Below are positions 20,920-40,853 of a stretch of 64,000 bases of DNA, piece by piece. The position numbers were made by a program, and so were the translations under genes. Within the stretch, counting starts at the first letter, position 1; each line of letters opens with the position of its first letter. Below the pieces are notes generated by a model. It had not been told where the DNA came from, did not search any database, and saw only the letters and a program-made list of their open reading frames with translations. Source of the DNA: a virus; IMG/VR virus record IMGVR_UViG_3300028840_002702, positions 18,745 through 82,744 of that record; one strand, given 5' to 3'.

Positions 20920-21243
20920 ATGGCTAAAAAACAAAAAGAATCAACCAAATTTTCTTTGGCATTAAAAGAACTCGGTTACGAATCAATCGGTGAATTTGTT
21001 GAACTAGTAGGTGGCTTTGCTGCTATGATTAGTGAAGGTAAAGATGCAAGTATTATGGCAAAACCACTTGCTGAACACTGTGGTGTTTTGATTGAACGTA
21101 TGGGACACCTTGATGCTGTTAAGAAAAAGAACCGCGATCTCAAAGAAATTGATGAACAAATTGAGAAAGCAAAAGAAGATAAACCAGCAATTACAATGGA
21201 TTTGGATCCTTCATTGATTGCAAACCTTAAAGGTCAAAAATAA
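20920..21243 (+). CDS. Hypothetical protein
   Basis: GAGG RBS; TTTACT-N16-TATATA promoter at 20865-20892. Confidence 0.7.
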   Translation: MAKKQKESTKFSLALKELGYESIGEFVELVGGFAAMISEGKDASIMAKPLAEHCGVLIERMGHLDAVKKKNRDLKEIDEQIEKAKEDKPAITMDLDPSLIANLKGQK

Positions 21244-21737: not shown

Positions 21738-22037
21738 ATGTCTATAACCAAACAAACTGTGTATATATGCGATAATTGTAATGACAAGAAAACATATAAT
21801 GAAGATACGTTTGGTGGAGCTCGCCCCTATGTGTACAATTTAGAATGTACTGGGGGTGGAGTTCTAAGAGATTCTAAACAGACTAAATACAATTTTTGTT
21901 CTCTTCAATGTGTGGGTGAGCATGTGCATAAACAAATTGAATTAGAATCTGTAAATAAAAACCAAGACACACGTGTACAGGATGCTTTAGATGCCCTCAA
22001 AGGAAATTATAGATCAGACGTTTCTACGGATAGCTAG
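21738..22037 (+). CDS. Small Zn-finger-like hypothetical protein
   Basis: CDNC...FCSLQC. Confidence 0.6.
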   Translation: MSITKQTVYICDNCNDKKTYNEDTFGGARPYVYNLECTGGGVLRDSKQTKYNFCSLQCVGEHVHKQIELESVNKNQDTRVQDALDALKGNYRSDVSTDS

Positions 22038-22479
22038 AGAAATAGCTAACTTTTCAAATTGTGTTTCATTTAATGTTGGTTGTGTTATCGTAAAAGATGG
22101 TCGCATAATTTCAATGGGTTACAATGGTACACCAAAGGGATTTCAAAATTGTTCAGAACGATTTCCAAATTTAATTGAACGCCCTCGTAAAACATGGTCA
22201 ACTGATGAACGTGACGAACATCATGCTTTTTCAGAAGCTCATGAAATTCACGCAGAAGAAAATGCGATCAATTTTGCTGCTCGACATGGTTTAAGTATTG
22301 AAGGTTCAGATGTCTATTGTACTTTACAACCTTGTAATCGTTGTCTTAAAATGTTATGTGCACCAGGAATTAAGCGTATTATTTATAGTGAAGAATATGA
22401 TAAATGTAATCATTGTTCGGAAGTAAGGGAAATGGTAATAAATAGTGGAATTAAATTAGAATGGATCCCCTTAAAGTAA
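21991..22479 (+). CDS. dCMP deaminase
   Basis: GYNGTP, HAEENA, PCNRC. Confidence 0.92.
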   Translation: MPSKEIIDQTFLRIAREIANFSNCVSFNVGCVIVKDGRIISMGYNGTPKGFQNCSERFPNLIERPRKTWSTDERDEHHAFSEAHEIHAEENAINFAARHGLSIEGSDVYCTLQPCNRCLKMLCAPGIKRIIYSEEYDKCNHCSEVREMVINSGIKLEWIPLK

Positions 22480-22853
22480 TAATTGCTGGAACTAGATCAA
22501 TTGAAGATATCCAATTAATTTATAATGCTATTGAAGATTCTGGTTTTGAAATTTCAGAAGTTGTGAGTGGTTGTGCTAGAGGTGTAGATTCTCTGGGTGA
22601 ACAATGGGCAGAAGAAAATAATATTTCTATCAAAAAGTTTCCCGCTGATTGGAAAGATTTAGAAACTCCACCTGTACGAATTAAAACAAACGGATATGGT
22701 CAGTATAATGCATTAGCTGGATTTGTTAGAAATCAAAAAATGGCTAATTACGCTAATGCACTTATAGCAATAACTACAGGAAGTCCTGGAACTAAGGATA
22801 TGATAGATCGTGCAAAGAAAAATGGTCTATATGTATTTGTAAAATATGTCTAA
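22461..22853 (+). CDS. SLOG-superfamily (DUF2493/YspA-like) protein
   Basis: IIAGTR, VSGCARGVD, PADW, RNQKM, SPGTKDM. Confidence 0.8.
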   Translation: MDPLKVIIAGTRSIEDIQLIYNAIEDSGFEISEVVSGCARGVDSLGEQWAEENNISIKKFPADWKDLETPPVRIKTNGYGQYNALAGFVRNQKMANYANALIAITTGSPGTKDMIDRAKKNGLYVFVKYV

Positions 22854-23934
22854 AAAAGTATTTGTATCAGGTTGTTATGATATTATCCATGGTGGCCATG
22901 TAGAATTTTTTACTCAAGCTAAAAATCATGGTGGACCAAAAGCAAAATTAATTGTTAGTTTTGCAAGTGATGATGTTTTACTTAAATATAAAGATCGAAA
23001 ATCGTCTTTACCTCAAGAACATAAAAAACGAATTTTAGAATCACTTGCAGTAGTTGATGAAGTGGTTATAGGAACTAACGTGGACAGTGACGGGATAGAT
23101 TTCTATGATCATTTCATTAATTTAAAACCGGATTATCTTGTAGTTACTGAAGATGATAAATATGAAGAACAAAAAAGAGCACTTTGCAAAAAAGTTGGTA
23201 CTGAATATATAATTCTTCCAAAAACATTACATTATGAAAAGATCTCAACAACTGAAATTGTTAATTGGATTAAAGCTCCAAAAGAAGTTCCATTAAGAGT
23301 TGATTTTGCTGGTGGTTGGTTAGATGTTCCAAAATATTCAGATAAAGATGCATACATTGTAAACTGCTCAATCAGTCCTTTAGTATCACTTAAAGAATGG
23401 TCATACAACATTAAAAGTGGATTGGGTGGATCTGGCGCTTATGCAATACTCACAGGTGTTGATGGTGTTAAGAGTGAATTAGATATGGGTGTTGGGTGGC
23501 AAGATCCAGCAATTATTCAAGAAACTGGATTATGTGTTTGGCGATCTGGTGAAAAACCTGTATTAGAAGTTAAAGTTAATCCCGATTTTCTTCAAGGTAA
23601 GATGGCATTATTTTGGACTGGTTATGATCATGATACTCCATCAAATGTAAATAACAAACGTCCATTTGATAAAATTAAACGTGCATCAATACGTGCAGCA
23701 GACGCTGTAGTTGAAAAAGATTATAATCTACTTTGTATTGCTATAGATATTTCGTTTTCAGCTCAATTATCAGAAGGCATGGCTTGGCTTCCTATTACAG
23801 ATGGTTGTATAGCACGTAAATATTGCGGTGGTGGTTGGGGTGGCTATGCTCTATATATGTTTGATACAGAAAACAATAGAGATAAATTTTGTGAACGAAC
23901 AGATGTAATTCCAATAGAACCATTTATGCGATGA
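22846..23934 (+). CDS. Fusion of a cytidylyltransferase-family nucleotidyltransferase and a GHMP sugar kinase
   Basis: GCYDIIHGGH (HxGH), ISTTEI; PLRVDFAGGWLD, SGLGGSGA, WQD, CGGGWGG. Confidence 0.85.
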   Translation: MSKKVFVSGCYDIIHGGHVEFFTQAKNHGGPKAKLIVSFASDDVLLKYKDRKSSLPQEHKKRILESLAVVDEVVIGTNVDSDGIDFYDHFINLKPDYLVVTEDDKYEEQKRALCKKVGTEYIILPKTLHYEKISTTEIVNWIKAPKEVPLRVDFAGGWLDVPKYSDKDAYIVNCSISPLVSLKEWSYNIKSGLGGSGAYAILTGVDGVKSELDMGVGWQDPAIIQETGLCVWRSGEKPVLEVKVNPDFLQGKMALFWTGYDHDTPSNVNNKRPFDKIKRASIRAADAVVEKDYNLLCIAIDISFSAQLSEGMAWLPITDGCIARKYCGGGWGGYALYMFDTENNRDKFCERTDVIPIEPFMR

Positions 23935-25401: not shown

Positions 25402-25791
25402 ATGAACAAATTTAATAAAAAATACGAAAAATTACTTCAAGAATATCGCTATCATTCTGATTATGCAAAACTTGGAACTGAAAACAGAGCAACTTTAGAA
25501 GTTGAAAATTTACCTGCAGGTTATGTTTGGGAATTACTTAATAAAGATAATTTTCAAGCTGTAACAAAACAAATTGGCGCCCCACCCTCAACAGATGATG
25601 GACAAGAAATTTTTGTTTTGAAAAAAGGTTCTGAATATAAAGTTGCTTTTATTGTTAATCCAAAAGATGGTACTCCTGTTCTTCTTTTCCATAAATATGG
25701 TACTAAAGGATTAGAAAAACATGCAGAAGCATTAGATATAACTTTTGATGATATTGGAGCCGGTGATTGGCGAGAGTATATTCAAAAATAA
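25402..25791 (+). CDS. Putative internal head protein (divergent leader-family member)
   Basis: MNKFNKKYEKLLQE leader; late promoter upstream. Confidence 0.6.
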   Translation: MNKFNKKYEKLLQEYRYHSDYAKLGTENRATLEVENLPAGYVWELLNKDNFQAVTKQIGAPPSTDDGQEIFVLKKGSEYKVAFIVNPKDGTPVLLFHKYGTKGLEKHAEALDITFDDIGAGDWREYIQK

Positions 25792-25905
25792 TTTCTATCA
25801 AATTTATAAATCAAAGTATATTTCTTAGTATACTTTGATTTTTTCTTGTTTATATATCTATATCTGAAACGAAAGACGGTAATACCGCAACACGAGGAGA
25901 AATTA

Positions 25906-28575
25906 ATGTACAGAAATGTAGTGTACCGTGTCGGTCCTGACACTGGTTGGAAAGGTGAAATTACGCTTTACACCTGGGATGAAGATGGAATTCCCGAAGA
26001 AAGAGTTTACCCCCACAAATCAAGACTTTATTACGAACGCCCAAATGGACATTATAAATCCATGTATGGCACTCTACTCGAAAAGAAAGAATTTGATTCT
26101 ATTATTGAAAGATCTCGATGGATAAAAAATAATCCTGGTATTAAAATCTTTGAATGTTTTCATCCCGAACGTGAATTTCTAATTGATTACTTTGATGGTG
26201 AACAAGAAAAAGATGATTTTGCAAAACACGAACTTCGTACACATATTATCGATATTGAAATAGCGGTTGAAGAAGAATTCCCGCTACCAAGTAATCCAAT
26301 TTATCCAATTAATGTACTTACTGTGTATGACAATTATCTTGATGAATATCATACATGGATCTTTAAACATAAAAAATGGTGTAAGCCAGATACAGACTTT
26401 ACAATAATCCCAGATGATATTGATAAAAGCGTTGAAATTCCTACAAACGTTGAATTACATGTATTTGATGATGAAATGGAAATGTATATGGACTTTCTTC
26501 GTTGGTTCAAACATAATAGACCAGATGTTTTAACTGGTTGGAATGTAGAAGACTTTGATATTCCATATCTTGTTGAACGTATTGAAGTATTTCTTGGTGA
26601 AACTGTTGAACTATTATCTCCTGTCGGTACTATTAAGAAAGAAATGCGCGAACAACGTGGGTTTGATTCTCGTAAACTCTATTCTTATAAAGTTAAAGGT
26701 ATTTCTACGTTAGACTATTTACCAATTTATCGTTTTAAATTCGGCGCTAATCTTCCATCATATAAATTAGAAAATGTAGCTATGGAAGAACTTGGATATG
26801 GTAAAATTAGTTATGAAGGATCATTTAAGCAGTTCTATCGTAATCATTTTGTAAAATTTGTATATTACAATATTATTGACGTAAAAGTAGTTAAGGATTT
26901 AGATACAAAACTTAAATATATAGCTCTTGCTCGTAACATTTGTAATATTGGTTTAAGTGAATATGAATCAATCTTTAGATCTTCACCAGCTATTATCGGT
27001 GCTCTTTGTCTTCAAGCACATCAAATGGACGTAAAAATTATGACAAACGCTGGTGTTGAACCAGTTGAAGCTAGTTTTACAGGTGCGTTTGTGTTTGATG
27101 TTAAACGTGGTATTTATCATGGTGGAACAAGTTCATTAGACTTAAATTCGCTATATCCAAACTTGATGATTAACTTAAATATTAGTCCTGAGACTAAAAT
27201 AGGTAAGATAATTTATCGAGATGATGATGAAATTATGATTAAATTTCAAAATGGATCTATCAAAAAGATGCATCCATCGAAATTAGAAGAACTTCGTGGT
27301 AAAGTTACAATATCTCCAAATGGTGTCTTATACATTAATCCGAAGAAAAAGGTTGGATTAATGCCAGCATTCCTTGAACGTCTTTATAAGAAACGTAAAG
27401 AAGTTCAAGCTCGAGATAAAGTTGTACAAGATAAAATCGAGAAAATTAAAGCCAAACTTAAAGAACTTTCTAAAGAAAAAGTTGATATTGTTAAACCAAA
27501 ATTAGCTGAGCTTGAAACATTGCATCAAAATCTAAATAATAGACAACATGCTTATAAAATCTTTCTTAATTCTATTTATGGTCAGCTTGGTAACCGTTAC
27601 TTCCCACTATTTGATCTTGATAATGCTGAAGCTGTTACACTCTCAGGACAAAAAGTAATTAAAGAATCTGCACGTTTTCTACAAACATATTTTCAAAAGA
27701 AATACAAGCTTTCAGATTATGAAGCACCGCTTGCTGGTGATACTGACTCATTATATTTTGATTGTTCACCAACAACACAAGCAGTACTTGGCCATCTTCC
27801 TGAAAAATGGGATGACGAAATGATTCAACGAGTTTGTGACGAGCTTGATAAAGATCTTGTGAAAAAGATTAATGCCAATTGTGGTAGAATTACTGAACAA
27901 GAGTTTATGTCTCCGTTAAAAAATATTGTATTTAAACGTGAAACATTCTGTACTGAAGCAATGTTCCTTGCTAAGAAACGTAATATTCTACATGTTCGTA
28001 ACGATGAAGGTATTCCAGTAGATAAATGGAAATGTACTGGTGTTGATATTAAACGTAATGAACTTCCTGGAAAAATCAAAGATTCATTAAAGCATATTAT
28101 GTTTACTTCTCTTGTTGATAGATGGACAGCTGGTGATTATGCTGGTGAAATCAAAGAAGTTTGGCATAAATTTAATGAATTGACAGCTGATGATATTGCT
28201 TTTAATAAAGGTTATACAACTGAAAAGAAATCTAATGGATTTTTGAAAGCTGAAAAAGGATCTCTAATACATGCTAGAGGTGCAATCTATCATAATCATA
28301 TTATCGAAAATTTGAAACTTGAAGATCAATACGATAAAATTCAAGTTGGAGATAAAATTAGATTTGCACGAGTATTAAAAACTAATGTGTATGGTATAGA
28401 TGTTATCGCTTGGAAAGACGAATGGCCACCAGAATTTGATGAAATTTTTACTATTGATTATCAAATGATGTTTGAAAAAGTTGTTCTCGCTCCTCTTAAA
28501 AGGATTATTGAAATCAACAATTGGTCAAGAATGCACCCAGCAAACGAAGTAGAAACAGATATAATGAATTTGTAA
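25906..28575 (+). CDS. Family B DNA polymerase (T4 gp43-like)
   Basis: DIE, GWNVEDFDIPY, YNIID, DLNSLYP, KIFLNSIYG, GDTDS, KKR; GAGGAG RBS; promoter TATACT-N16-TATATA at 25829-25856. Confidence 0.96.
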   Translation: MYRNVVYRVGPDTGWKGEITLYTWDEDGIPEERVYPHKSRLYYERPNGHYKSMYGTLLEKKEFDSIIERSRWIKNNPGIKIFECFHPEREFLIDYFDGEQEKDDFAKHELRTHIIDIEIAVEEEFPLPSNPIYPINVLTVYDNYLDEYHTWIFKHKKWCKPDTDFTIIPDDIDKSVEIPTNVELHVFDDEMEMYMDFLRWFKHNRPDVLTGWNVEDFDIPYLVERIEVFLGETVELLSPVGTIKKEMREQRGFDSRKLYSYKVKGISTLDYLPIYRFKFGANLPSYKLENVAMEELGYGKISYEGSFKQFYRNHFVKFVYYNIIDVKVVKDLDTKLKYIALARNICNIGLSEYESIFRSSPAIIGALCLQAHQMDVKIMTNAGVEPVEASFTGAFVFDVKRGIYHGGTSSLDLNSLYPNLMINLNISPETKIGKIIYRDDDEIMIKFQNGSIKKMHPSKLEELRGKVTISPNGVLYINPKKKVGLMPAFLERLYKKRKEVQARDKVVQDKIEKIKAKLKELSKEKVDIVKPKLAELETLHQNLNNRQHAYKIFLNSIYGQLGNRYFPLFDLDNAEAVTLSGQKVIKESARFLQTYFQKKYKLSDYEAPLAGDTDSLYFDCSPTTQAVLGHLPEKWDDEMIQRVCDELDKDLVKKINANCGRITEQEFMSPLKNIVFKRETFCTEAMFLAKKRNILHVRNDEGIPVDKWKCTGVDIKRNELPGKIKDSLKHIMFTSLVDRWTAGDYAGEIKEVWHKFNELTADDIAFNKGYTTEKKSNGFLKAEKGSLIHARGAIYHNHIIENLKLEDQYDKIQVGDKIRFARVLKTNVYGIDVIAWKDEWPPEFDEIFTIDYQMMFEKVVLAPLKRIIEINNWSRMHPANEVETDIMNL

Positions 28576-28625: not shown

Positions 28626-28958
28626 ATGAATATAGGTGAATTGAAGGAGATGATCTGGTCAATTATCGACGTACATATTGGAGGGATTCCAGTTACGGAG
28701 AAAATTTACATAGACATCAGTAACAACTATTTGCAAGAAGATGAACTAGGATTCTGTGAAACAACTGATGATTTTAAATCAGCATTCATAACATTTAATG
28801 AATTAGAACTTAATTGTATGGATGATTCAGAACAAATTGACGTTATATGTCATGAAATAGCTCATTTAATTTGTGAAGATAAAGAAGAATTTGAAGAACA
28901 TGATCAACTATGGCAGAATGTTGTAGTTGCACTTGGTGGAATGCCAAATTATTATTGA
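28626..28958 (+). CDS. SprT-like zinc metalloprotease domain protein
   Basis: HEIAH...HDQLWQ...LGG; promoter TATACT-N16-TATATT at 28577-28604. Confidence 0.75.
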   Translation: MNIGELKEMIWSIIDVHIGGIPVTEKIYIDISNNYLQEDELGFCETTDDFKSAFITFNELELNCMDDSEQIDVICHEIAHLICEDKEEFEEHDQLWQNVVVALGGMPNYY

Positions 28959-28968: not shown

Positions 28969-30171
28969 ATGAAAATCTGTTGTATTGAATATAATTTTGA
29001 TGCATTTAATGGTGGTGCAGCCACCTTTACCCGAGAGACAGTCAAACTATTTAATAAGTATTCTGATACGTTTGATGTAGATATTGTACAGTACGATCCA
29101 ATTGAAAAGAAGTGTGAAGTACTTGAAGTTAAACATATTGATGACGTTGATATAGAATCTTACGATATTGTAATGCATGGATGTGTAAACTGTGTTAATC
29201 GTGAGAATGACGAAATTCTTGATCTGTTAGTTAGCTTGAAGAATCCTCGTACTGTATTCTTTGAACATGACCGTTATCCTGTACAACGTGTATTTTGGCA
29301 TCAAAAGAAAAAAGCACGTACTGCAATGGCATGTGATTATATTATTACATGTCATCCTTTTATGTATAAAGAATTTGTTGAAGATAAAAGTAGAATCTTA
29401 GAATATAATACTTGGTTGAACTATAGAGATGTAACTGATGTTACTGAAGTTAAACCTTTTAATGAGCGCGAAATTGATGTTCTTTATCAAGCTCGTATTG
29501 CTCCCAAGAAAGGTTCTGATGGATATCTTGAATTTGCAACAACAACTAAAGAACTTGGTCTTTATGAAAATTATATGATGTATGGATTTACTGGAATGCC
29601 AGCAGAAATTTCTTGTAAAAAACATCCATCAGTATTTACTCGAATTCATAAAGATCCAAATAAACTGGTTTATAATACTCCAAAATCATTTATTGAACTT
29701 AATAAATTTGTTACCACAAATGAAGGTGTCTTAGATAATTTCAATAATGCTAAAATTACTTGGGCAGCTTATAAACTTGGTAAACAAAGTAAAGATGTAA
29801 ATGTTAAAATGCATAAAGGATGGGAAGGTGCTCAGCTCGAAGCTTTGGCTGCTGGAACTATTCTTATCTGTAATGGTTTACAACGTGATCTTGAAATCTG
29901 CGGTAAACGTCTCGAAGAATATGGTTGTTTTTTCTTTATCGACGATAACCAAATGGAGCCGCTAATTGAAGAAGTTAAGAATGCTAATCTTGAAGAAATG
30001 TATCAGAAGTTAATGGAATTTAGAAAGATTCTATTTAATGATAAGAATTTCGTTCAAGGTTGGGCTGATGTTTTAATTCCGATTTATAAAGGTGAAAAGA
30101 AAGAAACTTTTATAATTGAAGCAAGCACTTTTAAGGAATATAAAGAAAATAACAGTACAAGAACTAATTAA
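28969..30171 (+). CDS. GT-B glycosyltransferase resembling T4 DNA alpha-glucosyltransferase
   Basis: 400 aa; MKICCI..GGAATFTRE, VFFEHD, YQARIAPKKG, EGAQLEALAAG; lies next to the DNA polymerase. Confidence 0.65.
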   Translation: MKICCIEYNFDAFNGGAATFTRETVKLFNKYSDTFDVDIVQYDPIEKKCEVLEVKHIDDVDIESYDIVMHGCVNCVNRENDEILDLLVSLKNPRTVFFEHDRYPVQRVFWHQKKKARTAMACDYIITCHPFMYKEFVEDKSRILEYNTWLNYRDVTDVTEVKPFNEREIDVLYQARIAPKKGSDGYLEFATTTKELGLYENYMMYGFTGMPAEISCKKHPSVFTRIHKDPNKLVYNTPKSFIELNKFVTTNEGVLDNFNNAKITWAAYKLGKQSKDVNVKMHKGWEGAQLEALAAGTILICNGLQRDLEICGKRLEEYGCFFFIDDNQMEPLIEEVKNANLEEMYQKLMEFRKILFNDKNFVQGWADVLIPIYKGEKKETFIIEASTFKEYKENNSTRTN

Positions 30172-30193
30172 CATTTTAATAATTGAGGACTAA

Positions 30194-31480
30194 ATGAAAA
30201 AACATAAAGCTATCGCATATGCGATTTTTACCGGATCAAATTATATCGGCTGTATGAATACGGGTCGTTTTGAACAAGACACAATTCTTGAAAATTCTGA
30301 TGCATGTTTAGAAGGAAATTCGATGCATCTCGCTGGGTGTACTGCAAATTTAAAAATTGTCAAACCTAGTGAATGGAAAGAAGAAAATTATTTAGAAAAT
30401 CATCCAAGTTGTGGTTGTGATTATTTCTATGCTAATCCAAATTGTAGTGGATTAAGTCGAATTAATCGTAATGCTAATGCAGATCATTACAGAAATTTTT
30501 CTCTAAATGAATCTGTTGATATTATTGACAAGCTTGGTCCAAAAACTTTCTTTATTGAAAATGCTCCAACACTAAGTAGTCAAACTGGCTGGCCTATTCT
30601 TACTCGAATGGCAGAAGTACTTGGCGAAAATTACACATTCAATGTAACTCGTGATTATGGAAAATTTCACAATGTTCCAATGGGAAGACATCGTACTTTG
30701 GTAACTGGTTATCGCCGTGATGTTTTTGATAATAAAACTTTCAAACTTCCACATAAAGTTGTAACAACTAAAAAACTACTTGAAGAAGTTGGTTCAGATT
30801 TGATGCCACAAGATGTAGGTGTATTTAATTACGAACCATTTACTCATGATATGATTCAAATTGTTGAACAAAATTTCGAGATCTTTCAAGAAATTATTGA
30901 GAAGTATCAAAAGAAATTTACTATACTTTCTATTATTCTTTCAACTCATCCTCGTAATATCAATAAAGCGTTGGAAGAATCTTATGACTGGGATACAATC
31001 ATAAGAAAAACTAAGATGGAAAATGACAAGCATAAAGATAGTATTATTCGAGACATTGATCGTAAGATTGTGAAACTCGCTGGAGGCGGGGGTGTCTGGG
31101 ATAAGAGTCCAACACTGATTCATAAAGATGTTCAAATGGGAATTAGTCTGACTGCTATGGCAATTATGTATAATTACGAAGAACGTCGTTTGTTTAATAT
31201 CCGCGAATACGCAAACATGATGGGATATCCAAATGATTTCGTATTCAAACCTGGTGTTACAATTGGACATATTGCACAGGGTGTTCCAGCGAATTTTGCA
31301 CAATATGTTCATGAACATATCGCTAACGTTCTTGATAATCCTCAAGGTAATGTTGAATCAGTTGATGCTGATGCGGTTGTTCAATTGAATAATGCTAAAG
31401 AAGCAAGAACTGCAGCGGTTGATCTTGAAAGATTTAAAATACTCGGAAATATTAACTCAGCATTTGTAAAAGGAGAATAA
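30194..31480 (+). CDS. C5-cytosine DNA methyltransferase-like protein
   Basis: PNCSGLS (motif IV), IENAP (VI), VPMGRHR (VIII), RLFNIREYANMMGYP (IX), IAQGVP (X); motif I is degenerate (IFTGS). Confidence 0.8.
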   Translation: MKKHKAIAYAIFTGSNYIGCMNTGRFEQDTILENSDACLEGNSMHLAGCTANLKIVKPSEWKEENYLENHPSCGCDYFYANPNCSGLSRINRNANADHYRNFSLNESVDIIDKLGPKTFFIENAPTLSSQTGWPILTRMAEVLGENYTFNVTRDYGKFHNVPMGRHRTLVTGYRRDVFDNKTFKLPHKVVTTKKLLEEVGSDLMPQDVGVFNYEPFTHDMIQIVEQNFEIFQEIIEKYQKKFTILSIILSTHPRNINKALEESYDWDTIIRKTKMENDKHKDSIIRDIDRKIVKLAGGGGVWDKSPTLIHKDVQMGISLTAMAIMYNYEERRLFNIREYANMMGYPNDFVFKPGVTIGHIAQGVPANFAQYVHEHIANVLDNPQGNVESVDADAVVQLNNAKEARTAAVDLERFKILGNINSAFVKGE

Positions 31481-31483
31481 CAG

Positions 31484-32773
31484 TTGAAAAAGATCTGTGT
31501 ATTTAAAGTTGGTAAAAGTCCAAAGTTTTTCTGCAATGTAGATGTCAATGATCATCAATCGCGTATGATGGGTGACTGGGAGTTAGTCGAACTTATTCGA
31601 CTACTCTCAAATGAACATCCTGATGATCAAATTTATATTGTAGGACGAGCAAGACCTCAAAAGGGTTTTGATTTTAATGAACAATTCCCAAATGGTAATG
31701 TAAAGTATCTTCGTTTTGATAAAGATAAAGAAGATACTTCATTTGAGGCTGCACAATTCTATACTTCACATCCAGAGCTTGAAACAGTTGATGAATTCCA
31801 TTATCTTATGGGTCCACATGCCAGATATAATGGAAATATGAAACTCTGGGATGACGAAAAGGATAAACCAGTAAAAAGTATGATGTGTTTTGAAAATTAT
31901 GTAGCTCCTCTACATGCTTTAATGAACGCACATCCAAAAGCTGCCCATTTTCCATACATTTCTGACCGTCGATATGTATTTATTGGCCGAGATTTGGTTA
32001 CACAGCCCAAAATTATGCTTGCACAGAACGTCAAACCGTTCGAATTGGAGAATATTACCTTCAATAAAGCTGATGAAACGTCAAAACAGGGTTCTCAAGG
32101 GCCTAAAAAGTACACAATGGTACCATTTAGGTTCGATACATTGGTACTTTATGGTAAAAATAGGGACGAAATGACCCAAAATATGGTAAATTGGGAGTCC
32201 AGACCGTACGAAATATCAGTTGTAGCCAATCAAGTGGCCCCAAATATGGAAGGAAGTAGGTTCCAGGAGATCAAAAAGAACGTTCTGGACGTATATCCGG
32301 CCGAAAAAGTGGGTATAATTGGTCAGTGGAAGATAAAAGAAGTGGTAGAAGACCATATAGATTACGTTCATGAGGGTAGAACTGATGGTTGGGGTACTGA
32401 TTATTACGAAGAAATGAAGAAATTTAAGTATTCTATCATATTCTTTAACTGGAGAGACTGTTCTACTAAGACATCTAGAGCTCAAATTAAGGATAATTGG
32501 ATAACACCTAAGGTTTATGAAACAATGCTGCTTGGATGTGGTACTTTTATCCATGTAGAAGACCCTGAAATGCGTAAATGGTTCATTCCATACCTTGGAG
32601 ATAAACTACTTTTCAGCACACCTGAAGAGTTGAAGCATAAAATTGATACTTTTACTAAACAAGATATCATTGATGCTCAATTAGAAGTACTAAAACAGTC
32701 ATATTTTGATGGTTCTTACTTCAAAAAATTTATTGATAACGTAAGAAGTAAAATTTATGGCAATAGTAAATAA
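31484..32773 (+). CDS. GT-B protein resembling T4 DNA beta-glucosyltransferase
   Basis: SDRR resembles BGT TDIR; DNWITPKVYETM...STPEEL resembles BGT DNFITLRVWETM...NNRAEL; TTG start with AGGAG RBS. Confidence 0.6.
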   Translation: MKKICVFKVGKSPKFFCNVDVNDHQSRMMGDWELVELIRLLSNEHPDDQIYIVGRARPQKGFDFNEQFPNGNVKYLRFDKDKEDTSFEAAQFYTSHPELETVDEFHYLMGPHARYNGNMKLWDDEKDKPVKSMMCFENYVAPLHALMNAHPKAAHFPYISDRRYVFIGRDLVTQPKIMLAQNVKPFELENITFNKADETSKQGSQGPKKYTMVPFRFDTLVLYGKNRDEMTQNMVNWESRPYEISVVANQVAPNMEGSRFQEIKKNVLDVYPAEKVGIIGQWKIKEVVEDHIDYVHEGRTDGWGTDYYEEMKKFKYSIIFFNWRDCSTKTSRAQIKDNWITPKVYETMLLGCGTFIHVEDPEMRKWFIPYLGDKLLFSTPEELKHKIDTFTKQDIIDAQLEVLKQSYFDGSYFKKFIDNVRSKIYGNSK

Positions 32774-33140
32774 ACAATTTGAAGATTTTGTAGCATATGA
32801 TCCACACCAACTAATAAATTGCGGTCATAACTGGCTACCAGAGAAAAGTAATATGTATAAAGTAAACGATGTAATTAAATTTTCTAATACACAATTGGTT
32901 CATCCAGATATCATTAATAAAAAGTTTCTAATAACTGAACGATTAGTAGCTCATGTATCAATGATTTCTTTAGATGAAGATGAAATTGCACTTAATATCG
33001 ACTATCAAACTGTTCAAGATTTAGGTGGAGCAAAAATTGGATATCGTAGACAGAAAGCTGTTGGATTCTGGGCAAGTCTACGTAAAGATCCTGAATATGA
33101 AATTATTAATCTTGCAAATGAGAAAAATATAGATGGCTAA
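32757..33140 (+). CDS. Hypothetical protein
   Basis: Coupled ORF, 127 aa. Confidence 0.6.
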   Translation: MAIVNKQFEDFVAYDPHQLINCGHNWLPEKSNMYKVNDVIKFSNTQLVHPDIINKKFLITERLVAHVSMISLDEDEIALNIDYQTVQDLGGAKIGYRRQKAVGFWASLRKDPEYEIINLANEKNIDG

Positions 33141-33339
33141 TTTTGAAAATATCTCAAATGGAAAACACGGTGAAAATTCAAACGCATTTTGTGAACATTG
33201 TTATACACTTGAAAAGGGTATTGAATTATATATGGACGGATGTACTTGGTGTAGAGCTTGTATGATTGCAAATGGTTGGACTGATGAAAAACTTAATGAT
33301 ATGAGAGATAATGGTACTGAATATGACGATACAATCTGA
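33133..33339 (+). CDS. Small Cys-rich protein
   Basis: CEHC...CRAC. Confidence 0.55.
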   Translation: MANFENISNGKHGENSNAFCEHCYTLEKGIELYMDGCTWCRACMIANGWTDEKLNDMRDNGTEYDDTI

Positions 33340-33580
33340 ACCAGAACATCATAAACGTTATAGAGTAGCATGGGAGGCTCATAGAGATCCCGATACACCA
33401 AAATCTTGCTTAAAAGATATTGAAAATGAAATGGATAATGCTCAGAATGATTTTAAGTGGGATGAATTTCAAGAATTCAAACAAACACTTCCAGGTTATA
33501 TAGAACATTGGGAAAAAATGAAAAATGATCTTGATAAAAAATTGCTTGATATTATTGACAAAGAGATAAAAGATAAATAA
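33323..33580 (+). CDS. Hypothetical protein
   Basis: Coupled ORF. Confidence 0.55.
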   Translation: MTIQSEPEHHKRYRVAWEAHRDPDTPKSCLKDIENEMDNAQNDFKWDEFQEFKQTLPGYIEHWEKMKNDLDKKLLDIIDKEIKDK

Positions 33581-34197
33581 TGAAAAATACTATTGAACTT
33601 TTAGGAATTTATGGATCAGATTTAACACATGCACAATCGGCATGGACTTCAACTGAACGTGAATTAGATCAAAAGAAATTAAATCGTGTACCACAACTAT
33701 TAAAATATCTAGCTGAAAATAAACATGAAACTCCATTTGAGAAAAGTACATTACATTTCTTGGTAACATCAGAAATTGCTTCTCATATTCACATGCTTAA
33801 ACATCGAATTGGTGTTTCTATTAATGCTGAATCTGCTCGTTATAAAGAATTAAATGATGACAAATACTATATTCCTGACGATTGGCCAGAATTTCTACGT
33901 AAAGATTATATCAATTATATGGAAAAAGCATTTGAAAAATATCATGAAGTTTTAGCTCATTTAGAAATAATTGGATTTGATAGAAAACGTGCTAAAGAAT
34001 CTGCTAGATTTTATCTTCCATACGCTAATCAAATCAAATGTGATATAACATTTAACTTTCGATCATTTGTTCACTTTCAACGTCTTAGAAATGATGAACA
34101 TGCTCAATTAGAAATTAGAGAAATTGCGCAACAGATGCTTAAGTTAGTTAAAGATCATGGTGATTTTTTCCATACAATTAATGCGTTTAACTTGTAG
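33580..34197 (+). CDS. thyX: Flavin-dependent thymidylate synthase
   Basis: HETPFE, KHR-x8-SARY, ESARFYLP, NFRSF, HAQLEIR. Confidence 0.93.
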   Translation: MKNTIELLGIYGSDLTHAQSAWTSTERELDQKKLNRVPQLLKYLAENKHETPFEKSTLHFLVTSEIASHIHMLKHRIGVSINAESARYKELNDDKYYIPDDWPEFLRKDYINYMEKAFEKYHEVLAHLEIIGFDRKRAKESARFYLPYANQIKCDITFNFRSFVHFQRLRNDEHAQLEIREIAQQMLKLVKDHGDFFHTINAFNL

Positions 34198-34227
34198 ATA
34201 AATAATGATTTTAGAGGAAACAGAATA

Positions 34228-34845
34228 ATGAGTGTAAAAGTACAATTTTGGTCTTATAATGATCCTGATTTACATGTAGCATGGTTTCAAAATCTATCTG
34301 ATTTAGATTATGTAGAAATTAAAGAAGGTGACATTTTATCTGAAGGTTGTGATATTTTAGTAAGTCCAGCAAATAGTTTTGGTTTTATGGATGGCGGCAT
34401 AGATCTTCATTATAGAAATTTTTTTGGAATGGAGTTAGAAACCAGAGTTAAAAATGAAATTATTAATTATCGGGATGGTGAACTTCCTGTAGGAGATGCA
34501 CTAACAGTACCAACAATGAATGAAAAATTTCAATGGTTAATGGTACTTCCAACTATGAGAACACCAACTATTCTAAGACCTTCTGATCCAAATATTTATC
34601 TCGCGGCAAAAAGATTAGCATGGAGTATAAAAGGTTGGATGAATGAAGGTCGAGATAAGATTATTGCAGTCCCTGGACTTGGAACCGGTGTTGGTAAAAT
34701 GCCTCCAGATATTTGTGCTAAACATATTAGACTTGCTTTTGATAGGGTTATGAGTCCTAAAACTTGGTCTCCAACATGTTTTAGTGATGCTAAACTTCCT
34801 GGTGATACTCGTATGAGTATGCACGATTTCTTTCCTTCATTTTAA
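34228..34845 (+). CDS. Macro-domain (ADP-ribose processing) protein
   Basis: GDI, VSPANSFGFMDGGID, PTMR, PGLGTGVG. Confidence 0.9.
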   Translation: MSVKVQFWSYNDPDLHVAWFQNLSDLDYVEIKEGDILSEGCDILVSPANSFGFMDGGIDLHYRNFFGMELETRVKNEIINYRDGELPVGDALTVPTMNEKFQWLMVLPTMRTPTILRPSDPNIYLAAKRLAWSIKGWMNEGRDKIIAVPGLGTGVGKMPPDICAKHIRLAFDRVMSPKTWSPTCFSDAKLPGDTRMSMHDFFPSF

Positions 34846-34916
34846 TTAAAAAGATTTACACAAATGGTTTACTTAGAACTATTTGTGTTTATTTATTTTT
34901 AACAAAGGAAATTAAA

Positions 34917-35156
34917 ATGGATAAGAAAATTGTAAAAATTCCTTTACGTGATCGTTTTCGAAATGGAGGAAATCAAAGAACTAGTATTCTTGGTTATCTT
35001 GAAACAGACGAAATTGAATTATCAACTTTAGCATGGTTATTAGCCAATAAAATTGAATTGAAATTGGCTGGGGAAGTAAGACTTGATCAACATGGTCACT
35101 ATGAATTAACAGAAATTAGATTTGAAGCAATTCCACATGAGCGTAATAAAAAGTAG
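34917..35156 (+). CDS. Hypothetical protein
   Basis: 79 aa with AAGGA RBS. Confidence 0.55.
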   Translation: MDKKIVKIPLRDRFRNGGNQRTSILGYLETDEIELSTLAWLLANKIELKLAGEVRLDQHGHYELTEIRFEAIPHERNKK

Positions 35157-35700
35157 TATAATAGTAGAAGGTTTAGATTGTACAGGAAAAAGTACAATAA
35201 TCAAACATATTCAAAATGAAATTCCTCGATTAAAATATTATCATTTTGAATTCCCACAAGGTAATACTGATATTGAAAAGTATGCATTTCAATGGGGTCA
35301 GTTTGATATGATGTTTAAATTTATTGAATTGACAAATGGTAGTACACAGTTTATATTTGATAGAGCACATATCGGTGAATATATTTGGGGTCCAAAATAT
35401 CGAAAAATGTTTCCTGATTATATGCCAATGATTGAAGATAAGTATAAAAATCTTCCAATAGTTTTACTTCATGTTCATGCTCACCATTCAAAAATTTATC
35501 AACGTTTTGAACAACGTGAAGATGAGAAAACACCTGGTATTATGTATATTAAAGAATATCTAAATAAGTTTAGACTATTCTGTGAACGGAGTCCATTTTA
35601 TACAATATCACTTAATACGACCGATTTGGAAACACCAGATCAAATTAGCGCTGCAGTTAAAGATGTAGTTAGACAAATAGACGAATTCGAAAATAAATGA
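35137..35700 (+). CDS. Thymidylate-kinase-like dNMP kinase
   Basis: VEGLDCTGKST P-loop; FDRAHIGEYIWG. Confidence 0.85.
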   Translation: MSVIKSSIIVEGLDCTGKSTIIKHIQNEIPRLKYYHFEFPQGNTDIEKYAFQWGQFDMMFKFIELTNGSTQFIFDRAHIGEYIWGPKYRKMFPDYMPMIEDKYKNLPIVLLHVHAHHSKIYQRFEQREDEKTPGIMYIKEYLNKFRLFCERSPFYTISLNTTDLETPDQISAAVKDVVRQIDEFENK

Positions 35701-36431
35701 AAATTTTCAAAGACATACATAAAGCATATCGTGGCGTATTAATTGATGTTCGCGATAATTACGATCACATTTGTGCTCCACGTGAACAAGAAATTAGAGA
35801 AATCAGAGACTACTCATTTCGTATTGATAATCCAGTAGCTGAAGCTATTATTACAGCTGATGAAAAACGAAATGAAGTTATTGAAGATTATACTATGAAA
35901 GAATGGAAATTGTACGATTCATGTAGTAACCAAGTTCAGGATTTTGCAAAAGCATCCAAATTTTGGAATAAGCTACAAAATCCTGATGGTACAGTGAACT
36001 CAGCATATGGTTATTTGATTTGGAAGAAAAAATCTTTTGGAACCATAGCTTACGGTGATGGTCTGCATAGAACTCCATGGGAATGGGCTAAAGAATCTTT
36101 GATAAGAGATAAAGATTCTCGTCAGGCATTTCTTAAATTCTCTTTGCCAGAACACCAATGGTTTGGGAATAAAGATCAGACTTGTACGATGCATGCTAAT
36201 TTCCTCATTCGTGATGATAAGTTACATTTAACTGTTGTTATGCGTAGTAATGATGTTAAACTTGGCTTAGCTTACGATCTTCCATGGTTTGTATCTCTCT
36301 TGGATAGAATGCAAGATGATCTTATTGAGACTTATCCAGAATTGAAAATTGGAACTTATACTCATATTGCTCATAGTATGCATATGTACGAAAGAGATTT
36401 AGAAGATATTAGTAAGATGATCGGGGTTTAA
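35697..36431 (+). CDS. Thymidylate synthase homologue, dCMP hydroxymethylase type
   Basis: NSAYG, DSRQA, catalytic Cys in DQTCT, MRSNDVKLGLAYD (Asp at the dCMP-specificity position as in T4 gp42), SMHMYE. Confidence 0.82.
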   Translation: MKIFKDIHKAYRGVLIDVRDNYDHICAPREQEIREIRDYSFRIDNPVAEAIITADEKRNEVIEDYTMKEWKLYDSCSNQVQDFAKASKFWNKLQNPDGTVNSAYGYLIWKKKSFGTIAYGDGLHRTPWEWAKESLIRDKDSRQAFLKFSLPEHQWFGNKDQTCTMHANFLIRDDKLHLTVVMRSNDVKLGLAYDLPWFVSLLDRMQDDLIETYPELKIGTYTHIAHSMHMYERDLEDISKMIGV

Positions 36432-37555: not shown

Positions 37556-37933
37556 ATGAAAAGTAGACAAGGATTTGTAAGTAATAGTAGTTCATCTAGC
37601 TTTGTTATAATTGGAGCTAAACTTAAACAAGATATTCAAAATATTTCTGAAGAAAAAATGATTGAAATTATGAAATCATTTAAACTTGAATATGATGAAA
37701 AATATCCTGAAGATTCTTTTTGGGATTATGCATATTGTGAAGATTTTGGTGGTATTGGTATCGTACATAATACTAATTGTGTTGGAAAAACAGTCGCAAC
37801 ATGGGATGATTGTACTAGTATCAAAGAATTTAATATGAAAAATTTTGATCCTGAAAAAATTAAAAAACAAATTAAAGATATATTTGGCGAAGATGTTGAT
37901 GTTAAAATGTATTGTGGAATGACATACGGGTAA
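37556..37933 (+). CDS. MKxRxGFVSNSSSSSF-motif protein
   Basis: N-terminal MKSRQGFVSNSSSSSF. Confidence 0.75.
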   Translation: MKSRQGFVSNSSSSSFVIIGAKLKQDIQNISEEKMIEIMKSFKLEYDEKYPEDSFWDYAYCEDFGGIGIVHNTNCVGKTVATWDDCTSIKEFNMKNFDPEKIKKQIKDIFGEDVDVKMYCGMTYG

Positions 37934-37938
37934 AAATT

Positions 37939-38625
37939 ATGAAAAGAAGAGACGGATTTGTAAGTAATAGTAGTAGCAGTAGTTTTATTCTTGGATCTCA
38001 TAAAACTGTTCTTCAATATGCTATTGATATGGTTCCCTATAGAGAATGGGAAAATATTGACTGTGAATTAATTGAACAACTACGAAGTCTTCAAGATGAT
38101 CCAACATGGAATGATAATGCGCCAATAATGTTTAATTCTTGTAATTATGATACATTAATTGCTAGACTTGGTGATCATGTTTATATAAGTACATGTAATA
38201 ATCATCAATTTTATAATGCCTTCGACCATGAAGATATAGTAAATGTTAATCCCGAAACTGCTGAAAAAGAACTTGGTATCATAATGAATCCAGGAGAAGC
38301 TACTGATTATGCATATGATCTTTATGACTTATATCTGGATAGCTATAGTTTCTACTTTACACATGTCAGTGAAGAATTTATAAACGAATCTAAAACTGAT
38401 ATTAGAGATCAACCAAAACGTATTAAATCTATGGTTGATAATGTTGCAAAAAGTACTGAAAAAGAAGACAGATGGGAATGTAATACTTCTGATCTATCTT
38501 TTGATGAAATGGTTGCTTTAATGTATCTTATTAAATCCGGTCAAGCAGATACTATTATTTGTATCTCAGATACAACATTCTCTCGACTTGATAATAAAAT
38601 GAAAGATAAATTCATTAAATACTAA
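37939..38625 (+). CDS. MKxRxGFVSNSSSSSF-motif protein
   Basis: N-terminal MKRRDGFVSNSSSSSF. Confidence 0.75.
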   Translation: MKRRDGFVSNSSSSSFILGSHKTVLQYAIDMVPYREWENIDCELIEQLRSLQDDPTWNDNAPIMFNSCNYDTLIARLGDHVYISTCNNHQFYNAFDHEDIVNVNPETAEKELGIIMNPGEATDYAYDLYDLYLDSYSFYFTHVSEEFINESKTDIRDQPKRIKSMVDNVAKSTEKEDRWECNTSDLSFDEMVALMYLIKSGQADTIICISDTTFSRLDNKMKDKFIKY

Positions 38626-38708: not shown

Positions 38709-39260
38709 ATGAAATTTAACACAATAATGGAAGCATTTAAAATACCTTCTAAACAAAAACGTTTAGAAAAGATTGGTTTTAATGAAGAATTATTCCAACA
38801 AAATATTAAAGAAGCAAGAGATAATACTAGCTTCAATGATTTTGATATTAAACTAGAATCGGATTTAACACCTTATGGTCTTGAAAGTCTAGTAACACGT
38901 CAACTAATAAAATCTGCTGAATTATATGATGGATTTAAACATGAAAAAAATACAACATTCGACTCAGTAATATTATTCATAAAAGAAGCTGAAGACTATA
39001 AAATCGACCTCAAGTACATAATTAAATCTGATGATTATGAACAAGTCGAAATATCATTTTATGTATTCTTTGATTATCCTAATTATAAACTATCAAAAGG
39101 TACATTTGGTGCACGAAAATTTTATAACAGAATAACACATGAAGATGTTTTAGATCTAAGAAACTATATCTTAACACCAGATGATGTTAGTGTTAGTGAA
39201 AGTTGGGGTATTACAGTTGATACTTCTTATTTTAAACTTAGTGAGCTCAGAGATGAATAA
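38709..39260 (+). CDS. EAFKxP-leader family, putative internal head protein
   Basis: MKFNTIMEAFKIPSK. Confidence 0.7.
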   Translation: MKFNTIMEAFKIPSKQKRLEKIGFNEELFQQNIKEARDNTSFNDFDIKLESDLTPYGLESLVTRQLIKSAELYDGFKHEKNTTFDSVILFIKEAEDYKIDLKYIIKSDDYEQVEISFYVFFDYPNYKLSKGTFGARKFYNRITHEDVLDLRNYILTPDDVSVSESWGITVDTSYFKLSELRDE

Positions 39261-39777
39261 ATTTACAAACAAATATAATACTTTATTGGAAGCATTTAAA
39301 CTTCCACAATCTAATACACTAATTAGGCAGTATCAAAATTTATACGATTTAACAGAAGAACAAACTGAAAAATTCATAAAACATGCGGATTTTGTTGATA
39401 AATTAAAAACGATCAAATTTGAAATTCCTGTTAGTAAAGATCCAGATAATAATTATGATATGGTTGGTAAAATCCATAAAGTAATTGAAAAGGTCTTACC
39501 AAAAAATTATGAAATTGACGCAATGAATAATGTATTCTGGGGTAAACCAATGTTTTACACTAAAATAACAGTTGCTAATAGAGAAAATGATGGTACTGCT
39601 GCGATAGTTATTCATATAAATCAGGCCGCCAATGGTAAAATTATTGTTGATAATTTTATTTATTTTGATGATGTCAAATTTTTAAATTCAGAAGAAGTAT
39701 CTTTAATGGATGATACAATAACAGATAATATCTTTAATGATATAAGATCAGTACCAAATATTTTTTCAGTAAAATAG
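39253..39777 (+). CDS. EAFKxP-leader family, putative internal head protein
   Basis: MNKFTNKYNTLLEAFKLPQS. Confidence 0.7.
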   Translation: MNKFTNKYNTLLEAFKLPQSNTLIRQYQNLYDLTEEQTEKFIKHADFVDKLKTIKFEIPVSKDPDNNYDMVGKIHKVIEKVLPKNYEIDAMNNVFWGKPMFYTKITVANRENDGTAAIVIHINQAANGKIIVDNFIYFDDVKFLNSEEVSLMDDTITDNIFNDIRSVPNIFSVK

Positions 39778-39786
39778 GAATATAAA

Positions 39787-40332
39787 ATGAATAAATTTAA
39801 TAACAAATATAAACAATTGATAGAAGCATTCAAAGGTCCATCAAAAGACCAAATATTAAAATATTATGGGTTAAGTACTGGTGAATTTTTACAAAAGTAC
39901 AAACTATTTTTTCGCGATATAAGTTTTAAATCATTTGATATTTACATTTCTGAAAAATTTATGGAAGAAATAATTCAAATATTGATTAAATCATATATTG
40001 GTTCTAAAAATAAGATCTGGAGTGATACACCGGATCTTACATCACTTATAATTGAACGTAATTTTGATGATGAATCAGTTATTTGGTTATATTTTGACTT
40101 TATAAATCTTAAAGAGAAAAATATAATTGATGTTTCATTAATGTATGATCCTCATAATCAAAAAGTTGATAGATCTTTATTTATACGTGGAAATCAGGTA
40201 TTTAATATTGATGGTTCTATGTTAGATGAGCAAATATTGTATAAATTTATAGATAAAATGCAAAATATAAAATTAGATGTCGAATTAGGTAATAAAATTA
40301 TACATAGTCTTAATACGGAAGATTTAAAATGA
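39787..40332 (+). CDS. EAFKxP-leader family, putative internal head protein
   Basis: MNKFNNKYKQLIEAFKGPSK. Confidence 0.7.
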   Translation: MNKFNNKYKQLIEAFKGPSKDQILKYYGLSTGEFLQKYKLFFRDISFKSFDIYISEKFMEEIIQILIKSYIGSKNKIWSDTPDLTSLIIERNFDDESVIWLYFDFINLKEKNIIDVSLMYDPHNQKVDRSLFIRGNQVFNIDGSMLDEQILYKFIDKMQNIKLDVELGNKIIHSLNTEDLK

Positions 40333-40853
40333 AATTAGAAACATTTTTAGAAGCATTCAAAGTGCCACAACATGAAGATTTAATTAAAAAGTTCGAAGTA
40401 GAAGGTGCCGTAGAAATGTTCAAACTATTTGGACAAATCAAGTGGGATCCATTTACATTTGAATTTATAGATCAGATAAAACTTGATTATGAAAAACAAC
40501 AAAATCAATCATTTTCTCTCTTAATTACACTCTTTAAAAATATGAATTATGATACTAAAATATTTGAAGCAACATTAGAAAATAAAATATATGTTCGCCC
40601 ACTATCTGATGATTTAGTGCAATTTGATGGAACTAAATTTTCTATATCAGTTGCAAATTCTGGTAAAATTATATTCAATATTGAAGCAGTCGCTCAAAAT
40701 GAAAATTCGTTATCACGCTTTTCTCAAATAGGACCATTTGAAATCTACGATGAAAAGAAAATGAATACTGCTATTAATATCATTACTTCAGATTACGCTA
40801 CACTTCATCTCATTGACGATGGCGGTCAAGGTTCAAAAATTCAACTTCCCTAA
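40329..40853 (+). CDS. EAFKxP-leader family, putative internal head protein
   Basis: MKLETFLEAFKVPQH. Confidence 0.7.
   Translation: MKLETFLEAFKVPQHEDLIKKFEVEGAVEMFKLFGQIKWDPFTFEFIDQIKLDYEKQQNQSFSLLITLFKNMNYDTKIFEATLENKIYVRPLSDDLVQFDGTKFSISVANSGKIIFNIEAVAQNENSLSRFSQIGPFEIYDEKKMNTAINIITSDYATLHLIDDGGQGSKIQLP

Follow-up and report, generated by a model that had tools for sequence, protein, structure and literature searches.

A putative T4-style cytosine hydroxymethylation and DNA glycosylation module, with a C5-methyltransferase-like partner, in a distant T4-like phage

A window of 64,000 nucleotides of viral DNA (bases 18745-82744 of the 82,744-base IMG/VR virus record IMGVR_UViG_3300028840_002702) was analyzed computationally, focusing on the gene block at window positions 28969-36431, which is tightly packed and has every gene on the + strand. 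This block probably encodes a T4-style module in which 5-hydroxymethylcytosine (5hmC) is made before replication and glycosylated afterwards in the DNA, a reading based on homology, marker residues, fold, gene coupling and conserved synteny. The genes concerned encode a thymidylate synthase (TS) homologue, a kinase, two GT-B glycosyltransferases (GT1 and GT2) resembling the T4 DNA alpha- and beta-glucosyltransferases (AGT and BGT), and a protein similar to C5-cytosine-DNA-methyltransferases (MTase-like). A first-pass annotation, made from the sequence alone, had proposed that the genome carries glycosylated 5hmC. The genes it named were found at their coordinates on the + strand, and the TS marker residues, the kinase and the BGT-like and AGT-like genes speak for the proposal, but full replacement of cytosine does not follow, as no match to a deoxycytidine triphosphatase (dCTPase) was obtained. 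That annotation had included both transferases in the module but overlooked the MTase-like open reading frame (ORF) lying between them (30194-31480).

The TS homologue (35697-36431, 244 amino acids) matched PF00303 (E 1.5e-11; 44.4 bits against a cut-off of 24.3) and phrog_160 (E 7.9e-28). When it was compared by phmmer with all PDB chains, the top match was T4 deoxycytidylate hydroxymethylase (1b49/1b5e, E 1.1e-15), followed by the CMP hydroxymethylase MilA (7e-12), with thymidylate synthases appearing only from E 1.9e-6 and worse. The motif RSND..LG..YD, from which selection of deoxycytidine monophosphate (dCMP) had been predicted, is indeed present at residues 182-194, which read M182-R-S-N-D186-V-K-L-G190-L-A-Y-D194. 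D194 was aligned with the T4 residue that is Asp in the wild type and Asn in the mutant chain 6l18, and C163 with the T4 catalytic Cys (T4 C148, E. coli C146), which is Ser in the mutant chain 6a9a. In a MAFFT alignment, D160, C163, D186 and D194 fell at E. coli L143, C146, D169 and N177, positions at which five canonical ThyA rows of the same run carry L, C, D and N, and the spacing fits the published residue list. The four residues were invariant in a five-sequence alignment that included Aeromonas phage 25 gp42; besides this protein, the pattern is displayed by the TS of Enterococcus phage VPE25, by gp319 of Bacillus phage G and by an uncultured 462-kb phage, which is the closest record (41% identical).

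The meaning of these residues can be read from Lee et al. (2026; PMC13326640). In E. coli numbering, N177D selects dCMP, the change of L143 to Asp or Glu accompanies a hydroxymethyl and not a methyl product, and D169N is the mark of 5-hydroxy-dCMP synthases that depend on flavin, among them those of RB69 and DLP3. Asp at N177 and at L143, together with the Asp kept at D169, thus constitutes the signature of a T4-type synthase of 5-hydroxymethyl-dCMP (5hm-dCMP) and excludes the RB69-type signature. Judged by these markers, the TS homologue is of the dCMP hydroxymethylase type, a putative 5hm-dCMP synthase. The dCMP-selecting Asp of the first-pass annotation was therefore borne out, both by the best PDB match and by additional markers telling hydroxymethylases apart from methylases and 5-hydroxylases.

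Left aside in that annotation was an alternative in which the TS homologue would make 5-hydroxy-dCMP, as the enzymes of RB69 and DLP3 do, and sugars would be ether-linked straight to C5. According to Lee et al. (2026), such enzymes share N177D and L143E, and GT-B transferases and TMPK-like kinases are encoded in the same clusters; the window resembles the arabinosyl-5-hydroxycytosine pathway of RB69 and DLP3 in N177D, in the acidic L143 position, in the cognate kinase and in the location of GT-B transferases near the polymerase. However, the diagnostic D169N is missing, and the short "thymidylate synthase" chains 9iqu and 9iqc, which would correspond to the enzyme of phage HY126 to which Lee et al. 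(2026) refer, matched the TS homologue at E ~2e-4, versus 1e-15 for the T4 enzyme. The alternative is thus very improbable, and an identity as RB69-type 5-hydroxy-dCMP synthase was rejected on D186, which is Asp and not Asn at E. coli D169.

Hardly credible, too, is a TS homologue that acts as a dCMP methylase and gives 5-methylcytosine (5mC) DNA, with transferases acting on non-DNA targets. Asp at N177 reportedly also converts TS into a dCMP methylase, a result that we associate with a 1992 study by Liu and Santi, and the DNA of phage Xp12 is fully 5mC, presumably through an enzyme of this kind. Against this, the L143 position is occupied by Asp and not by a bulky hydrophobic residue, and the relationship of GT2 to BGT is specific.

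Indeed, GT2 (31484-32773, 429 amino acids, with a TTG start that follows AAGGAG and lies 3 nucleotides past the preceding stop) is, by profile and predicted fold, a distant relative of T4 DNA beta-glucosyltransferase. As a single sequence it had no informative match in Pfam (PF09198 included) or PDB, and a tblastn search of phage records gave one weak match (E 0.03). One relative was found in a word-indexed protein search and 21 proteins at E <=0.001 in an exhaustive profile search; in the search for related loci, none was retrieved with GT2 alone or with alignment A1, and the smaller alignment A4 retrieved one viral locus and two short metagenome contigs. The profile built from the 21 relatives (A3) matched T4 BGT in the PDB (1bgt/1nzd, E ~1e-9) as its sole match below 0.01, the next being a fucosyltransferase (E 0.016), in an alignment that spans BGT residues 129-347, that is, the C-terminal domain and linker only. 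In this alignment, GT2 R259, K343 and E346 (numbering counted by hand) lie opposite BGT R195, R269 and E272, which we take to be UDP-binding residues; R259 is invariant and K343 and E346 are nearly so in the 21 relatives, BGT R269 is Lys in GT2, and R191 has no clear equivalent. D161 is also invariant in the GT2 family, and three of its 21 members reach the Pfam model Glyco_trans_1_2.

An AlphaFold2 model of GT2 built on the A3 alignment (predicted local distance difference test, pLDDT, 86.4; predicted template modelling score, pTM, 0.88) retrieved 1j39, BGT with UDP-glucose, at rank 1 in Foldseek, with many GT-B enzymes close behind. In VIA-align, three BGT entries scored Z 21.4, 21.3 and 20.9 (root-mean-square deviation 3.8-4.4 over 313-318 residues), 1j39 being the best (Z 21.4, 3.8, 313 residues), and the next non-BGT family scored 18.7. 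The second match in BFVD is named "DNA beta-glucosyltransferase" (template modelling score, TM, 0.71). The BGT-like gene proposed earlier is thus upheld by the A3 profile and by the comparison with 1j39.

GT1 (28969-30171, 400 amino acids) has no match in Pfam (PF11440 at E <=0.1 included), PHROGs or PDB, the whole contig has no PF11440 match, and tblastn against 50,697 phage records returned nothing at E <=1. A word-indexed search gave one relative (60% identity), and neither phmmer nor a profile of the two sequences found anything meaningful in the PDB. In the ESM Atlas, the three best feature matches are clusters in which 100% of the members belong to PF11440 (score 0.98), and the Atlas model of GT1 (pTM 0.71) superimposes on an AGT cluster with a TM of 0.76 over residues 1-385. 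A custom hidden Markov model (HMM) was built from seven of the nine PF11440-matching proteins of related records, leaving out one located outside the loci and one weak partial match, and was run against 130 targets (the 129 ORFs of the contig and the GT1 relative). It ranked GT1 first (E 9.5e-6, residues 132-348) and the relative second (1.8e-4), with nothing else below 0.01 among these targets, which included the other GT-B ORFs of the window. Pairwise hhalign gave E 5.2e-4 and a probability of 31% with phage G gp306, and no similarity with the 470-amino-acid transferase of locus L002; an AlphaFold2 model from the two-sequence alignment reached a pLDDT of 33.8 and was not used. GT1 may therefore be described, on weaker evidence than GT2, as a putative AGT-like GT-B glycosyltransferase, in agreement with the earlier designation, which the ESM Atlas and custom HMM results support. 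Both transferase genes follow the polymerase gene, as had been noted, behind a gp43-type polymerase and a 110-amino-acid SprT-like ORF (28626-28958, +) that lies between the polymerase and GT1. The further suggestion that the sugar may be new is unsupported: it was drawn from transferase divergence alone, and nothing identifies the donor. No sugar-donor-synthesis gene lies inside 28969-36431, but the window as a whole does contain a cytidylyltransferase-like ORF (22846-23934) and a large glycan island.

A different kind of acceptor has to be weighed for these enzymes, since one or both could glycosylate a virion protein, the host envelope or a small molecule within a phage glycan programme. 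In favor of this are the lack of a direct Pfam or PDB sequence match for GT1 and a 16-kb upstream island that contains family-GT2, GT7C/GT29-like and GT10 transferases, methyltransferases, a CMP-sugar synthetase and an adenosine 5'-phosphosulfate (APS) kinase. Nevertheless, GT1 and GT2 lie in the replication/nucleotide block and outside this island, members of the BGT-like family in relatives adjoin the pathway kinase or are fused to it, and AGT- or BGT-type genes recur together with TS homologues bearing the same two diagnostic Asp residues (Asp/Asp TS). A non-DNA acceptor is thus considered unlikely.

The island itself, which covers about 16 kb (window 1-16361 and L010:18555-19055), is a glycan-assembly region. 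Its genes encode the APS kinase, family-GT2-like ORFs, two fusions of GT2/GT7C and GT29-like domains (486 and 711 amino acids) and two GT10 fucosyltransferase-like ORFs, as well as CmcI-type methyltransferases, a CTP_transf_3 CMP-sugar synthetase, an HpcH aldolase, a 2-hydroxyacid dehydrogenase and GT-B ORFs. A GT-B glycosyltransferase ORF (14465-15652, +), GT4-like by Pfam GT4/GT1 matches under their cut-offs and with no PDB sequence relative, shares 47% identity with an ORF of G002, a complete relative, and in both genomes the gene forms part of a Cpn10-dUTPase-deaminase-polymerase block; speculatively, it could be a third DNA glycosyltransferase.

The kinase gene (35122-35700, +) encodes a thymidylate-kinase-like deoxynucleoside monophosphate kinase, presumed to act on 5hm-dCMP, which matched phrog_761, "thymidylate kinase" (E 5.4e-19), and the TMPK models of Pfam and NCBIfam only under their cut-offs; it has no solved close relative. 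Its TGA overlaps the ATG of the TS gene by 4 nucleotides (ATGA), and a kinase homologue directly precedes the TS homologue in L007, L011, L025 and L028 and adjoins the BGT-like gene in L004. In the 592-amino-acid protein P0007, the N-terminal 196 residues form a homologous kinase domain (30% identity to the window kinase over 90 residues, E 4e-5 pairwise) that is fused to a BGT-like domain. Because of the overlap with TS, the adjacency to TS and BGT-like genes in relatives and this fusion, the kinase is tied to the pathway, and its previously noted coupling to the TS homologue was confirmed.

A separate supply of deoxythymidine monophosphate (dTMP) had been ascribed to ThyX, and this flavin-dependent thymidylate synthase is encoded at 33580-34197 (+; PF02511, E 2.2e-37; phrog_85, E 1.3e-35). 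A dCMP deaminase, which would provide ThyX with dUMP as cd does in T4, is encoded at 21991-22479 (+; PF00383, E 4.9e-24), with homologues in L011, L022, L023, L032 and phage G (gp317). The trimeric dUTPase-family enzyme at 21243-21734 (+; PF00692, E 9.4e-20; NCBIfam dut matches under cut-offs) appears to be the sole candidate for a pyrophosphatase acting on dUTP or dCTP. A gene of this family lies in the module of both the contig and G002, and homologues adjoin the MTase-like gene in L023, L027 and L029 and are found within the module of L011.

The MTase-like enzyme (30194-31480, +, 428 amino acids, its start preceded by GAGGA) belongs to the module. It matched PF00145 (E 2.5e-15; 57.2 bits against a cut-off of 22), although only from profile position 61 onwards. 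In an alignment with M.HaeIII, motifs IV (P-C), VI (E-N-V), VIII (R-x-R) and X were found, and the motif IV Cys C84, E122-N123-A124-P, R165/R167 and Q-G-V-P (G363-V364-P365) show little or no variation across 23 homologues. The canonical motif I, which binds S-adenosylmethionine (SAM) and has the consensus F-x-G-x-G-G, was not found: the sequence reads IFTGSNYIG, and I-F-G-G-S-x-x-x-G in most of the family. In its place, the 23 aligned members keep an N-terminal pattern of F12, G14, S15, G19, E33, H45 and N49, and this conservation across the family suggests a cofactor pocket that is changed but kept, not decayed. The family has at least 230 homologues of about 400 amino acids, among them gp301 of Bacillus phage G, with 32% identity over 98% of the length of the MTase-like ORF. 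A complex prediction for the MTase-like and BGT-like proteins scored 0.00 and, being run without controls, speaks neither for nor against binding.

As for its role, the leading guess is that the MTase-like enzyme would methylate cytosines escaping replacement, with chemistry on 5hmC itself as the alternative. A methylase for leftover cytosines would be reasonable where replacement is incomplete, whereas full replacement would leave the enzyme in need of another substrate. C5-methyltransferases deprived of SAM are said, from work in the Klimasauskas laboratory, to be able to add, remove and substitute groups at C5 of 5hmC in vitro. A bolder proposal, which we regard as doubtful, is that the MTase-like enzyme is no methylase and, with its Cys/Glu/Arg machinery and remodelled pocket, attacks C6 of 5hmC or of its glycoside in DNA, so that an undescribed cytosine hypermodification is made or edited, or that it guides the transferases to flipped-out bases; likewise, the 16-kb island could extend the DNA sugar to a methylated or sulfated oligosaccharide. 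A full-text literature search, with supplements outside its scope, found no paper on the role of a C5-methyltransferase homologue in phages with TS-dependent 5hmC, and the word "methyltransferase" is absent from the main text of the MetaGPA paper, whose supplement was likewise outside the scope. In the passages covered here, Pyle et al. (2023; bioRxiv 2023.12.21.572611), Burke et al. (2021; PMC8256090) and Lee et al. (2026) do not present such a homologue as one that regularly accompanies the TS route.

The association of the MTase-like family with the pathway was assessed in a census in which a pattern scan based on the family alignment yielded 22 viral loci that, together with L002, make 23 records. 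PF00303 was matched in 19 of them, including all seven that are at least 90% complete, figures for which there is no background rate of such TS; the four records without a match are 3-65% complete. Each of the 19 has one divergent TS with the D/C/D/D (Asp/Asp) pattern, and five also have a canonical ThyA. According to distances computed by hand from the coordinates, no more than 2 kb separates the Asp/Asp TS gene from the MTase-like gene in 10 of the 19 records, and no more than 10 kb in 14; in two jumbo genomes the distance exceeds 100 kb. The BGT-like profile matched seven of the 23 records and PF11440 eight (24 were searched including the contig itself, which had none); one or the other is found in 14 of the 23, and in all seven near-complete genomes, in one of them only at E 9.5e-4. 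In L003, L002 and L011, synteny is kept between the MTase-like and BGT-like genes, the order being AGT-like/MTase-like/BGT-like in L003, BGT-like/207-amino-acid ORF/MTase-like/ThyX in L002, and pol/MTase-like/BGT-like...kinase/TS in the complete 164-kb relative G002.

Several related loci have further genes alongside. In L002 (155 kb, 65% complete), positions 4061-14549 encode in a row a Thg1-like protein, the 470-amino-acid glycosyltransferase, a HAD hydrolase, a radical SAM protein, an NTP-transferase, the BGT-like protein, the 207-amino-acid ORF, the MTase-like protein and ThyX, and no PF00303 match was found in this record. In L009 (Enterococcus phage VPE25, 5001-8914), an Asp/Asp TS (36% identical to that of the window) comes first, and behind it lie genes for a dUTPase and an annotated "b-gt beta glucosyl transferase", together with a nucleotide-sugar-synthetase-like gene. 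About 22 kb of phage G (L005/L006) contain gp301, two annotated alpha-glucosyltransferases, a glucose-1-phosphate thymidylyltransferase, a HAD hydrolase, two TMPK-like kinases, the dCMP deaminase and gp319.

The same gene arrangement bears on a TET-type post-replicative route, in which the MTase-like enzyme would make 5mC, an unrecognised oxygenase would convert it to 5hmC, the flanking transferases would glycosylate it, and the TS homologue would serve otherwise. The position of the MTase-like gene directly between both transferases, and beside the BGT-like gene in L002, L003 and L011, fits such a route, as does the lack of a PF00303 match in the L002 record, and clusters of C5-methyltransferase, TET (5mYOX) and glycosyltransferase genes are a known arrangement (Burke et al., 2021; Pyle et al., 2023). 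The window shares with these clusters a C5-methyltransferase homologue beside DNA glycosyltransferases but differs from them in having a TS homologue and a kinase. No Tet_JBP (PF12851) match was found in the contig or in the 23 related records, a weak absence, as control genomes were equally silent; at a looser threshold, two records had none either, again weakly, since three controls matched but none above the family cut-off. Moreover, the Asp/Asp TS accompanies the MTase-like gene at the frequencies and distances given above, and the kinase is linked both to TS and to the BGT-like gene. A TET-type route is thus considered distinctly unlikely. Contigs that combine ThyS with 5mYOX number just six in the work of Pyle et al. 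(2023). The same authors examined about 25,000 glycosyltransferase-containing viral contigs, in which GT-B enzymes occur mostly with ThyS, that is, in pre-replicative pathways; to judge from this association, the combination of TS with GT-B is already known (Pyle et al., 2023).

In the favored T4-style pathway, the TS homologue would turn dCMP into 5hm-dCMP with methylene-tetrahydrofolate, and the kinase, coupled to it in translation, would phosphorylate the product towards a triphosphate pool from which the gp43-type polymerase would incorporate it. Meanwhile, ThyX, the dCMP deaminase as source of deoxyuridine monophosphate (dUMP) and the dUTPase-family enzyme would sustain dTMP, and the latter may drain dCTP as well as dUTP. 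Once the DNA is replicated, the two GT-B enzymes, BGT-like and AGT-like, would move a sugar from a nucleotide-diphosphate sugar onto the hydroxymethyl group in DNA.

Several points weigh against this pathway. The phage is uncultured, and the module is known from its genes alone. Neither transferase on its own reaches a Pfam model of a DNA glycosyltransferase, and Asp100, which we take to be the catalytic base of BGT, has no mapped counterpart in GT2, as the profile alignment stops short of it. The presence of the glycan island in the window means that not every glycosyltransferase of the genome need act on DNA, and it is hard to see what a C5-methyltransferase homologue would act on in DNA whose cytosines are all 5hmC. 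Finally, the dCTPase that the first-pass annotation had proposed to look for did not appear: neither MazG nor PF08761, the family to which we assume T4 gp56 to belong, was matched in the 82.7-kb contig (36% complete) or in the complete G002, so that complete replacement of cytosine is unsupported and exclusion of dCTP has no assigned enzyme.

Among known systems, the glucosyl-5hmC pathway of T4 shares with the window the TS marker residues, with T4 gp42 as the best solved relative, a dedicated kinase, a dCMP deaminase, and a BGT relative and an AGT-like enzyme near a gp43-type polymerase. In contrast to T4, the window kinase is thymidylate-kinase-like (a comparison with gp1 was not made), no gp56-type dCTPase was found, ThyX replaces the ThyA-type td, and the transferases are too diverged for Pfam models. 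The C5-methyltransferase-like gene is a further difference, the T4 module having, to our knowledge, no gene of this kind. The region gp301-gp319 of Bacillus phage G is also similar, with the MTase-like gp301, the two annotated alpha-glucosyltransferases, a TMPK-like kinase, the dCMP deaminase and the Asp/Asp gp319 within about 15 kb. It differs in belonging to a jumbo phage of a Gram-positive host, in its own glucose-1-phosphate thymidylyltransferase and HAD hydrolase, and in having no BGT-like gene by profile A3. From its gene content, phage G probably also makes glycosylated 5hmC.

Regarding the source of the DNA, the 909-amino-acid family-B polymerase (25846-28575, +) shows about 30% identity to gp43 of cyanomyophages, and upstream of it are encoded a gp55-like sigma factor, gp47/gp46-like nuclease subunits and a gp6-like baseplate protein, which together indicate a distant T4-like phage. 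The window has a G+C content of about 30%, the source record has a CheckV completeness of 36%, no close phage record was matched by megablast, and a 206,884-base contig on record encodes identical proteins. The remaining genes of the block are three small ORFs without matches between GT2 and ThyX (+) and a macro-domain protein (34228-34845, +; PF01661, E 9e-9; phrog_2613, E 4.6e-41; a weak DarG-like match), which was not found in related loci. Elsewhere in the window, positions 22461-23934, between the dCMP deaminase and polymerase genes, encode a SLOG/YAcAr-domain ORF followed by a 362-amino-acid cytidylyl/adenylyltransferase-like ORF (22846-23934), which is cytidylyltransferase-like with an RfaE domain II-like match under the cut-off. 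Several ORFs at 25402-25791 and 38709-40853 start with a similar leader, M-N-K-F-N-x-K-Y ... L-E-A-F-K-x-P, and two adjacent ORFs at 37556-38625 have R-x-G-F-V-S-N-S-S-S-S-S-F near the N-terminus.

Sugar-coated 5hmC is a classic phage defence against restriction and CRISPR nucleases, and the enzymes involved are tools of epigenetic sequencing. The module described here suggests that distant marine T4-like phages keep the logic of T4 with very diverged transferases, and it singles out a widespread, conserved MTase-like partner that would have no expected substrate if replacement were complete. Either cytosine is partly replaced and the rest methylated, or the C5-methyltransferase fold may have been recruited for a new chemistry on 5hmC.

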